A stretch of DNA of 64,000 nucleotides from Elusimicrobiota bacterium. Its GTDB lineage: Bacteria; Elusimicrobiota; Elusimicrobia; JACQPE01. Under the pieces are notes generated by a model. The model was not told the DNA's origin, made no database searches, and saw only the letters and a program-made list of their open reading frames with translations. Each line of letters starts with the position of its first letter. Position 1 is the first letter of the stretch. A program made the translations under genes and the position numbers. Location: the NCBI GenBank assembly GCA_042563375.1, contig JBHPMF010000005.1, positions 3,568 to 67,567 on the forward strand, read 5' to 3'. This document shows, one piece after another, positions 5,867 to 48,837 of the stretch.

Positions 5867-5965
5867 ATGATGAAAATGTTTATTAGAAGTATCGCAGTAA
5901 CACTGATAACAGCTCTTCTGATCACTGTTCCCGGTATAGCTCCATACCAGGTCCTGGCAGCAATG
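5867..5965 (+). other. N-terminal signal peptide / membrane anchor of ORF1
   Basis: MMKMFIRSIAVTLITALLITVPGIAPYQVLAA: a basic residue followed by a roughly 20-aa hydrophobic stretch. Confidence 0.7.

Positions 5966-48837: not shown

Follow-up and report, generated by a model that had tools for sequence, protein, structure and literature searches.

Giant proteins that bear a SecA-type motor and are punctuated by transmembrane (TM) helices have been described from Omnitrophota as 'Archaeovorin-type' (West-Roberts et al., 2023, 10.1101/2023.11.21.568195); a divergent SecA-like motor is reported as a hallmark of these proteins, their cleavage into smaller polypeptides has been raised, and 'large' and 'giant' were set at lengths of at least 10,000 aa and at least 30,000 aa, respectively. 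'TM-only' and 'tandem-repeat scaffold' classes of giant protein were reported by Nielsen & Lui (2026, 10.64898/2026.06.07.730766), and large genes have been noted before to be frequent in Elusimicrobiota. Here, a 64-kb window (64,000 nt of contig JBHPMF010000005.1, assembly GCA_042563375.1, labeled as an Elusimicrobiota bacterium; all positions are counted from its first nucleotide) was analyzed, in which two co-directional open reading frames, ORF1 and ORF2, occupy 67% of the sequence. This unit probably encodes one native 14,323-aa membrane-stitched, cytoplasm-facing, multi-module protein of the SecA-motor giant kind, which would serve as a protein-handling platform. An annotation made earlier from the letters of the window (the original prediction) had called it a host- or prey-interaction or envelope-remodeling machine of an undescribed type, resembling giant proteins of Omnitrophota-like bacteria.

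The resemblance is borne out by the divergent SecA-like motor and numerous TM segments common to both, but the type is not undescribed, the class being already present in both preprints. Like the Omnitrophota giants, the unit is a very long ORF in which many TM helices recur at intervals of a few hundred residues, and it has a SecA-like DEAD motor that is highly divergent, scaffold repeats of the HEAT, NHL and WD kinds, internal module duplication that is no longer tandem at the nucleotide level, large family-less stretches and one weak sequence link (homologue P0128). It differs in coming from Elusimicrobiota, in size (annotated as 7,496 + 6,797 aa, with 14,323 aa reached only when an A9 tract at the 3′ end of ORF1 is bridged, and below 30,000 aa in either case), in lacking glycosyl-transferase/hydrolase, methyltransferase, NUDIX, dockerin, C39 and S8 domains, in carrying a complete ClpC/ClpA-type unfoldase, in TM segments that form a motif-bearing hairpin cassette unmentioned in those two preprints, in a frame split at the A9 tract, and in having no type II secretion system (T2SS) or carbohydrate-import genes near the unit. 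As far as the searched papers show, what is new relative to these preprints is the hairpin cassette with its signal-peptidase-like motif, the predicted cytoplasmic layout and the embedded Clp-type unfoldase, together with an HExxH domain common with ATP-binding cassette (ABC) exporters and the mid-gene homopolymer frame switch.

The original prediction gave the coordinates of both ORFs and their lengths (7,496 and 6,797 aa, 67% of the window) exactly, and its claim that they are genuinely coding stands. A codon-usage model was trained on seven flanking genes and scored over consecutive 300-nt windows of both ORFs, and the annotated frame was best in 141 of 141 windows; GC at codon positions 1/2/3 was 0.54/0.40/0.53, the same as in the flanks, and the GC content of the window is even (0.44–0.51) with no step at the giant genes. 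Since both codon usage and codon-position GC are like those of the flanks, the giant ORFs are native coding sequence and not a compositional accident. Reassignment of stop codons was rejected, as there are no stops at all within the frames under the standard code. The likely true start of ORF1 is the ATG at 5876, 9 nt 3′ of GAGG. About half of the residues of both ORFs are without a detectable family in Pfam or PDB, and when ten modules of ORF1 and another six pieces were searched against Pfam at relaxed thresholds, all matches were sub-threshold.

That the unit shows as two ORFs is probably due solely to one −1 frame change at the A9 tract, the longest A run in the window. The 3′ end of ORF1 reads GCA AAA AAA AAG TCC TGA, and the heptamer A_AAA_AAG (28345–28351) lies in frame with the −1 frame open through to 48837; an in-frame X_XXY_YYZ heptamer just 5′ of the 0-frame stop, with the −1 frame open, is the arrangement of dnaX-type −1 frameshift sites. 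The ORF2 frame is open from about 28285, ~160 nt 5′ of its ATG, and in this frame the 86-nt gap between the ORFs encodes a complete membrane cassette, KIPKRKKKVLTLKSFLLFALIPAAVFLAALSLPGISEAA (J9, one of 13 such cassettes), which has no start codon of its own. A −1 shift or one extra A at the tract fuses ORF1 and ORF2 into 14,323 aa with no internal stop. ORF1 and ORF2 are therefore one reading-frame unit joined by a single frame change, which may reflect an error in sequencing the homopolymer, an indel that is recent or phase-variable, slippage in transcription or ribosomal frameshifting; under each of these four, the two ORFs would be one functional unit.

Near the N terminus of ORF1, what the original prediction called a superfamily 2 (SF2) ATPase has a signature that is present but weak in Pfam (DEAD 2.6e-3, Helicase_C 0.03), with the motifs AGTGTGKT (Walker A), DEPQ (Walker B), GMSGS and QAMGRGGR. 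Single-sequence PDB searches with the SF2, HEAQH and X modules gave nothing useful, and the motor match needed a profile of seven family members. In PDB this profile matched SecA (9.3e-6) and SecA2 (2.2e-5) as the sole significant entries, ordinary helicases following at 0.07, and the alignment to SecA pairs Walker A and the motifs GM(S/T)G(S/T) and Q..GR.GR of nucleotide-binding domain 2. An AlphaFold2 (AF2) model of aa 660–1260, built from the seven-sequence alignment, reached a mean predicted local distance difference test score (pLDDT) of 71.7, as compared with just 39 for a single-sequence run, and the best 26 Foldseek matches of the model in PDB were all SecA or SecA2 (E 1.5e-15 to 3e-9, ~600 aligned columns). 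One homologue, P0126, has a sub-threshold Pfam SecA_DEAD match. On the strength of the profile, the modeled fold and this homologue, the module is reassigned as a very divergent SecA-like motor. Compared with canonical SecA and SecA2, it has the motor fold, Walker A and the two paired motifs, and its ~200 aa from Walker B to GMSGS leave room for an insert of PPXD size; it differs in being only ~15% identical, in being embedded ~660 aa into a giant membrane protein, and in not reaching the gathering thresholds of SecA_DEAD, SecA_PP_bind and SecA_SW.

Relatives of the motor are few. An exhaustive HMMER search of 1.84 billion proteins returned eight representatives, and phmmer with the motor retrieved no canonical SecA among these 1.84 billion. 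The best six are 'partial' hypothetical proteins of 724–2,782 aa from Elusimicrobiota metagenome-assembled genomes (MAGs), cut at contig ends, with a cluster mate of one of them reaching 4,227 aa; two weak matches are labeled Chloroflexota and Omnitrophota (the latter P0128). P0123, P0124 and P0126 have an N-terminal anchor like that of the giant protein, ITxPG…Y(Q/E)(V/A)LA, and P0121 and P0126/P0130 have TM hairpins, in-frame palindrome translations and further modules (PD40, GGDEF, an MFS-like region). JGI metagenome contigs scanned with the motor-family alignment contained no relatives.

The second ATP-dependent module, at the C terminus of ORF1, is the ClpA-type double AAA+ module of the original prediction, and this assignment is secure in both Pfam (AAA_2 4e-64, with AAA_lid_9 and ClpB_D2-small) and PDB (ClpC, 7.5e-188). 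Like class I Clp/Hsp100 proteins, it has two AAA+ rings with intact Walker A/B (Walker A GEAGVGKT and GPTGVGKT), the D2 pore loop GYVG and a D2-small domain, and an IGF tripeptide (ORF1 aa 7349) lies in the loop aligned with the ClpP-docking loop of ClpA/ClpC. It differs from them in lacking the N-domain (Clp_N was not found by Pfam, and the alignment begins at ClpC residue 165), in having no M-domain or a vestigial one (residues 422–457 are skipped), in a Tyr to Met change in the D1 pore loop, and in not being free-standing, with a TM hairpin on either side.

Thirteen conserved two-helix hairpin cassettes split the protein into ~14 modules, and at least 15 membrane clusters are seen along it by hydropathy. 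Each cassette has the layout K/R, TM1 (17–18 residues), FGLPGx[GS]EAA, a short acidic loop, TM2 and K/R, and the consensus of the 13 is LA(P/A)TAGLLA(Y/F)FGLPGx(G/S)EAA. DNA copies of the cassette are merely 60–89% identical. The ratio of synonymous to non-synonymous differences is 274:318 in the ten motif codons and 39:266 in the four codons that follow; this contrast shows that selection acts on the motif as a peptide. Of the 195 residues in the 15-aa stretches that lead into TM1, 48 are K or R, as against 4 of ~249 loop residues, over the 13 junctions. By the positive-inside rule, the cassettes would thus be hairpins with both ends in the cytoplasm, and nearly the whole protein would lie on the cytoplasmic face; the pattern is consistent at all 13 junctions. 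One ATP-dependent module precedes J1 and the other lies between J8 and J9, as expected if the helices separating them are even in number, and both motors are placed in the cytoplasm because they need cytoplasmic ATP. The ~320-aa N-terminal domain is predicted to be the sole sizeable periplasmic part. Nearly all the domain signatures given in the original prediction stand, as does its claim of coding; it missed the hairpin cassettes, the single frameshift that relates ORF1 to ORF2 and the Elusimicrobiota assignment. The cassette was also considered as an LPXTG/sortase or PEP-CTERM-type signal and this was rejected (LPxTG in 3 of 13 copies, an internal element, no sortase context), and a search with a degenerate cassette DNA pattern gave five single matches, all by chance and none with a preceding helix.

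In the proposed arrangement, a signal anchor and the periplasmic domain would be followed by ~14 soluble modules strung along the inner membrane by the 13 hairpins, the product presumably staying in one piece after translation. The SecA-like motor, placed first, would drive insertion of the protein's own hairpins through SecYEG and could possibly export partner proteins by the same route; the Clp-type unfoldase would remodel or extract polypeptides at the membrane; and the solenoids and propellers (HEAT, NHL, WD40-like, PD40-like) would hold clients or partners. Together these steps would make the protein a membrane-tethered protein-handling platform.

Several observations weigh against this interpretation. 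No Pfam SecA family was found in the window protein at E ≤ 5, the module staying below the SecA_DEAD threshold; about half of the giant protein is without a recognizable fold; and the 64-kb window contains no Sec, Clp/ClpP or secretion-system genes. The topology is drawn from hydropathy and charge, and the long S/F/L-rich loops of J8–J11 and J13 could conceal helices and so flip ORF2 modules; NHL, WD40 and PD40 propellers are often extracytoplasmic. At the A9 tract, neither of the accessory elements of dnaX-type sites was found, as there is no stimulatory structure downstream (fold z = −1.0; only a 4–5-bp hairpin) and no Shine-Dalgarno (SD)-like element upstream. In-frame A_AAA_AAG occurs four more times in ORF2 without consequence, and the A9 site could be a true stop parting two proteins.

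The last point leads to the view that ORF1 (the Clp-type end) and ORF2 (a HEAT/NHL/WD40 scaffold) are two separate proteins translated independently, the gap cassette being left over from the recent splitting of an ancestral single gene by a frameshift; we regard this as a real though minor possibility. It would accommodate the in-frame TGA after A9, the ATG directly after the cassette and the lack of a frameshift-stimulating structure, while the absence of an SD before ORF2 is uninformative because many genes of this genome have none. On the other side, the 78-nt J9 is intact and no further from the consensus than the translated copies are, which would be unexpected had it long been untranslated, and ORF2 begun at its own ATG would open in the middle of a hairpin, with the loop and TM2. 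A tract of nine As is also long enough for transcriptional or replicative slippage, as in Thermus dnaX and the poly(A) tracts of endosymbionts.

How the product is organized has as its main rival a bacterial membrane polyprotein, in which TM1 acts as an internal signal peptide and signal peptidase I cuts after [G/S/A]-E-A on the periplasmic side to release ~14 proteins, each anchored by a helix at its N terminus, its C terminus or both; cleavage of giant proteins has been raised before (West-Roberts et al., 10.1101/2023.11.21.568195). We judge this improbable without being far-fetched, since the cassette does have a Sec n-h-c layout (K/R, a 17–18-residue A/L/G-rich helix and a helix-breaking G-L-P-G), small residues at −3/−1 (G/S/A-E-A↓A) in 12 of 13 copies, a basic flank before TM1 and an acidic loop, and a motif under purifying selection at the peptide level. 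However, the hairpin turns of P0121 and P0130 keep 'GLPG/GLPE' and not E-A-A, so that what is conserved may be a turn and not a site of cleavage; as a cleavable h-region TM1 would be long, and an invariant Glu at −2 is no requirement of signal peptidase. Flavivirus polyproteins are cut by host signal peptidase. The likeness to flavivirus and pestivirus polyproteins is an analogy of mechanism only, namely one chain threaded through the membrane by helices that end in small-x-small sites; here the gene is cellular and bacterial, there is no homology and cleavage is hypothetical. Doubtful, too, is an extended form in which a 14-kaa (thousand amino acids) precursor, stitched into the inner membrane by the 13 cassettes, would be cut by signal peptidase at G/S-E-A↓A into ~14 co-localized, membrane-anchored subunits, the SecA-like motor and the Clp-type unfoldase among them, ribosomal, transcriptional or replicative slippage at A9 would gate production of the distal 6.8-kaa scaffold half, and the in-frame REP-like palindromes of the linkers would record growth of the gene by read-through fusion over one-time intergenic spacers.

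A surface weapon or adhesin, with most modules exported by the SecA-like motor, propellers and solenoids binding prey or host and exported ankyrins and peptidases assisting, is quite improbable. Omnitrophota giants have been read in this way in the literature, the protein has an N-terminal signal anchor and many TMs, its NHL, PD40 and WD40 propellers are of kinds often found outside the cytoplasm, and the genes flanking the unit include those for exported ankyrin, MepA-like and S9 peptidase proteins. Yet the ORFs contain no domain that Pfam recognizes as carbohydrate-active, dockerin, lectin, Ig or wall-lytic, the SecA-like and Clp ATPases require cytoplasmic ATP, the positive-inside pattern is consistent at 13/13 junctions, HEAT solenoids are typically intracellular, and there are no T2SS or other secretion genes in 64 kb. 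The host/prey or envelope-remodeling role assigned in the original prediction is accordingly not upheld, as the ORFs are without adhesion, carbohydrate-active or wall-degrading domains, the motors are cytoplasmic and the exported neighbors are merely neighbors. Its likeness to polyvalent proteins fails as well (only a sub-threshold LPD39 inside HEAT repeats, and no mobile-element context), while its statement that the ORFs are not of adhesin, RTX or NRPS/PKS character is confirmed by full-length Pfam, which finds no Ig, cadherin, RTX or NRPS/PKS domains. An anti-phage defense system was rejected, PADLOC on ORF1 giving generic AAA+/HEAT similarity only.

A chimeric or collapsed assembly or a decaying pseudogene is scarcely credible, and an assembly artefact is unlikely as the origin of the giant ORFs: internal repeats (including a ~350-nt patch at 94–100% identity), a frameshift at a homopolymer and palindromic REP-like (repetitive extragenic palindromic) elements inside the ORFs would suit it, but there is a single frame break in 43 kb, catalytic motifs are intact, codon usage is uniform, the longest exact repeat is 141 nt with other repeat copies 57–88% identical, and homologous long ORFs occur in independent Elusimicrobiota MAGs.

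Giant TM-punctuated proteins are common in Omnitrophota and related phyla, and a 14-kaa Elusimicrobiota example is small enough to dissect for topology, post-translational integrity and function. It offers as handles a sharply conserved signal-peptidase-like cassette, a charge pattern contrary to the 'surface weapon' reading and two intact protein-moving ATPases, and the homopolymer frame switch in mid-gene makes the question 'one protein or several?' directly testable. For annotation, single homopolymer indels split such giant genes, and at least one large protein database seems to lack them. The window PepA is present in a 5.8-billion-protein collection (75,981-bp contig), and an ORF2-internal query missed ORF2; the giant ORFs may be absent from this collection, which would bias 'no homologue' results.

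Coordinates of the features of the unit and of the two related exporter loci, the latter on the contigs named.
Feature	Position	Strand	Remarks
ORF1	5867..28357	+	7,496 aa, N-terminal half of unit
N-terminal signal anchor (…IAVTLITALLITVPGIAPYQVLAA…)	5876..5959	+	kept in Elusimicrobiota homologues P0123, P0124, P0126
~320-aa N-terminal domain	5960..6922	+	between TM 4-22 and TM 353-376; no family match
SecA-like DEAD motor (putative)	7844..9646	+	ORF1 aa 660-1260
Cassette J1 (TM1 + FGLPAAGEAA)	10787..10864	+	TM2 15 aa further on
Cassette J2	11732..11809	+
Cassette J3 + polytopic membrane region	12125..12856	+	ORF1 aa about 2103-2330, several hydrophobic helices
Cassette J4	13868..13945	+
HExxH/HEAQH module copy 1	15884..17416	+	ORF1 aa 3340-3850; HEAQH aa 3630
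Cassette J5	18725..18802	+
PD40-like beta-repeat module	18884..20086	+	PD40 4.6e-3; homologue P0121 PD40 3.9e-14
Cassette J6	20042..20119	+
Cassette J7	21146..21223	+
Amidoligase_2-like region	21314..23566	+	4.4e-4, below Pfam cut-off
ORF1 HEAT arrays	23564..25846	+	flank eight 30-aa 'HWKDHPE' repeats (24239-24933)
Cassette J8	26105..26182	+	then long S/F/L-rich loop with palindromic repeats
ClpC/ClpA-type double AAA+ unfoldase	26507..28354	+	C-terminus of ORF1, both Walker A/B pairs intact
A9 tract / in-frame slippery heptamer A_AAA_AAG	28342..28351	+	4 nt before ORF1 TGA (28355-28357)
Junction cassette J9 (KSFLLFALIPAAVFLAALSLPGISEAA)	28366..28443	+	ORF2 frame, 5′ of its ATG
ORF2	28444..48837	+	6,797 aa counted from first ATG
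ORF2 HEAT array 1	28651..33123	+	three ~500-aa blocks of 37-aa units
X module copy 1	33124..34930	+	~600 aa, no known family, conserved PMPTCQ motif
Cassette J10	34918..34995	+
HEAT array 2	35125..37563	+	first ~350 nt 94-100% identical to 28897-29246
X module copy 2	37570..39550	+
Cassette J11 (variant LLGLPEAASVG)	39553..39630	+
NHL propeller	39949..40902	+	six repeats, 5e-54
X module copy 3	40951..42820	+
Cassette J12	42808..42885	+
WD40-like array	43081..44283	+	ten 40-aa repeats, 1e-19
Family-less ~700-aa module	44284..46371	+	no match found
Cassette J13 (variant IFMPGISEAV)	46372..46449	+
HExxH/HEAQH module copy 2	47281..48834	+	ORF2; HEVEH aa 6448, HEAQH aa 6577
HExxH-ABC exporter locus L004	9608-12274 (JACQAZ010000041.1)
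HExxH-ABC exporter locus L005	about 9700-11197 (DATLSD010000039.1)

Most of the scaffold modules named in the original prediction were recovered. Its estimate of ~50–60 HEAT units agrees with an in-frame Pfam match of 1e-66 and with 52 detectable 37-aa units in ORF2 alone (profile from the tandem array), to which ORF1 adds 31-aa units, the whole protein having more than 60. NHL and WD40-like repeats are clear at the scores tabulated, and the PD40-like repeats are weaker but real. For the tandem amidoligase-like domains, the region was seen below threshold and the second copy is suggested by motif only. Self-comparison of ORF2 resolves super-modules, namely HEAT + X + junction twice, NHL + X + junction, WD40-like + unknown + junction, and beta-repeat + HExxH/HEAQH. 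The three copies of the X module are 57–77% identical; a homologue search with the X-module protein was empty but missed its own ORF, and is hence no evidence of orphan status. Positions 28897–29246 and 35386–35735 share ~350 nt at 94–100% identity with a longest exact run of 141 nt, within a duplication of the HEAT array that is otherwise 60–90% identical, and the patch looks like a recent gene conversion between the two arrays.

Both HEAQH modules claimed in the original prediction are present, and the second also carries HEVEH. The ORF2 module is 42% identical to ORF1 aa 3360–3845, and in copy 1 the first HExxH is degenerate (HKIEQ). A homologue search with the HExxH-domain protein was empty, which is not evidence of orphan status. 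When the two-copy alignment was scanned against one genome per GTDB species, two loci only were found, both in Elusimicrobia MAGs, and at both an ABC_membrane + ABC_tran exporter has the first ~165 aa of the module (with HELYH or HEIYH) as its N-terminal domain; the exporter-fused domain has no Pfam or PDB match, and only TPR and DUF4932 proteins neighbor the exporter of L004. The N terminus is the site of the C39 peptidase domain in peptidase-containing ABC transporter (PCAT) exporters. In the two Elusimicrobia MAG exporters the HExxH domain holds this C39 position; it differs in not being C39 and in carrying HExxH, so that it would be zincin-like with a presumed peptidase activity, and in the giant protein it is unattached to a transporter. 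These sequences suggest a zincin-like processing domain shuffled between exporter and giant protein, and the exporter-fused form is a candidate for a new accessory domain, of peptidase type, in ABC exporters.

GC-rich palindromes of ~27 nt, GTCATYCC-loop-GGRATCCAG, lie between genes at 2087, 5572 and 5690(-), and six more lie in frame inside the giant ORFs (15820, 15934(-), 26210, 26360, 35044 and 39661); they are in no ordinary gene of the window. Two further families are confined to the giant ORFs, CCTCTCCCCTTGAGGGAGAGGGT with four copies and GTCATTGCGAGGAGC…GCGACGAAGCAATC with two. The elements within the ORFs are located in linkers and hairpin loops, and the loops of J8 and J11 contain a 145-nt element with a better fold than its shuffles (z = −3.5 and −2.7). 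Elusimicrobiota homologues show like translations of palindromes (e.g., PSPLEGEGRVRG, ILKQVQDD), and a literature search for peptide translations of palindromic repeats found no match. The in-frame palindromes would fit a gene that grew by fusing across what had been spacers, and also tolerance of such elements in linkers.

The window PepA is 59–61% identical to Elusimicrobia MAG proteins and the homologues of the giant protein are likewise from Elusimicrobiota, which points to Elusimicrobiota, not Omnitrophota, as the host. Within 10 kb, the nearest relative that keeps pepA-ispH-folE synteny contains no giant gene. The upstream flank encodes a MepA-like endopeptidase, a rhodanese and two tandem helix-turn-helix (HTH)-like paralogues, and the downstream flank two signal-peptide ankyrin proteins, several small exported proteins and an S9 peptidase. 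No integrase, conjugation or other mobile-element genes were found in the window, and Rfam and tRNA scans of it were empty.

The tandem paralogues upstream of the giant gene (3573–4430 and 4434–5318, both on the minus strand) are oriented divergently from it and encode proteins of 285–294 aa, which match only an Lrs14-type HTH, and that weakly (4e-5), and which may be regulators of the unit. One and the same leader, AAAGGAGAAAAACAA-ATG, lies at 49126–49143, 52274–52291 and 53466–53483 before the exported-protein genes 49141 (ankyrin), 52289 and 53481, whose products have similar signal peptides (MKNKILA… / MKQMIVA…), and hints at either duplication of the 5′ ends or a translational signal common to these genes. 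The intergenic region 5′ of the S9 peptidase gene (54143–54322) contains a 47-nt direct repeat (two copies, 97%) followed by two inverted repeats with 26-nt and 17-nt arms. A 346-aa ORF at 584–1624 (minus strand), with an internal signal-peptide-like helix, a HEMAH (HExxH) motif and no NCBIfam match, may encode an exported zinc metallopeptidase. Finally, a 185-aa exported-looking protein (58040–58597, minus strand) ends in an extreme lysine tail (KKPKKKEKKKKRKKKQKK), which accounts for the T7–T9 runs at 58058–58125.

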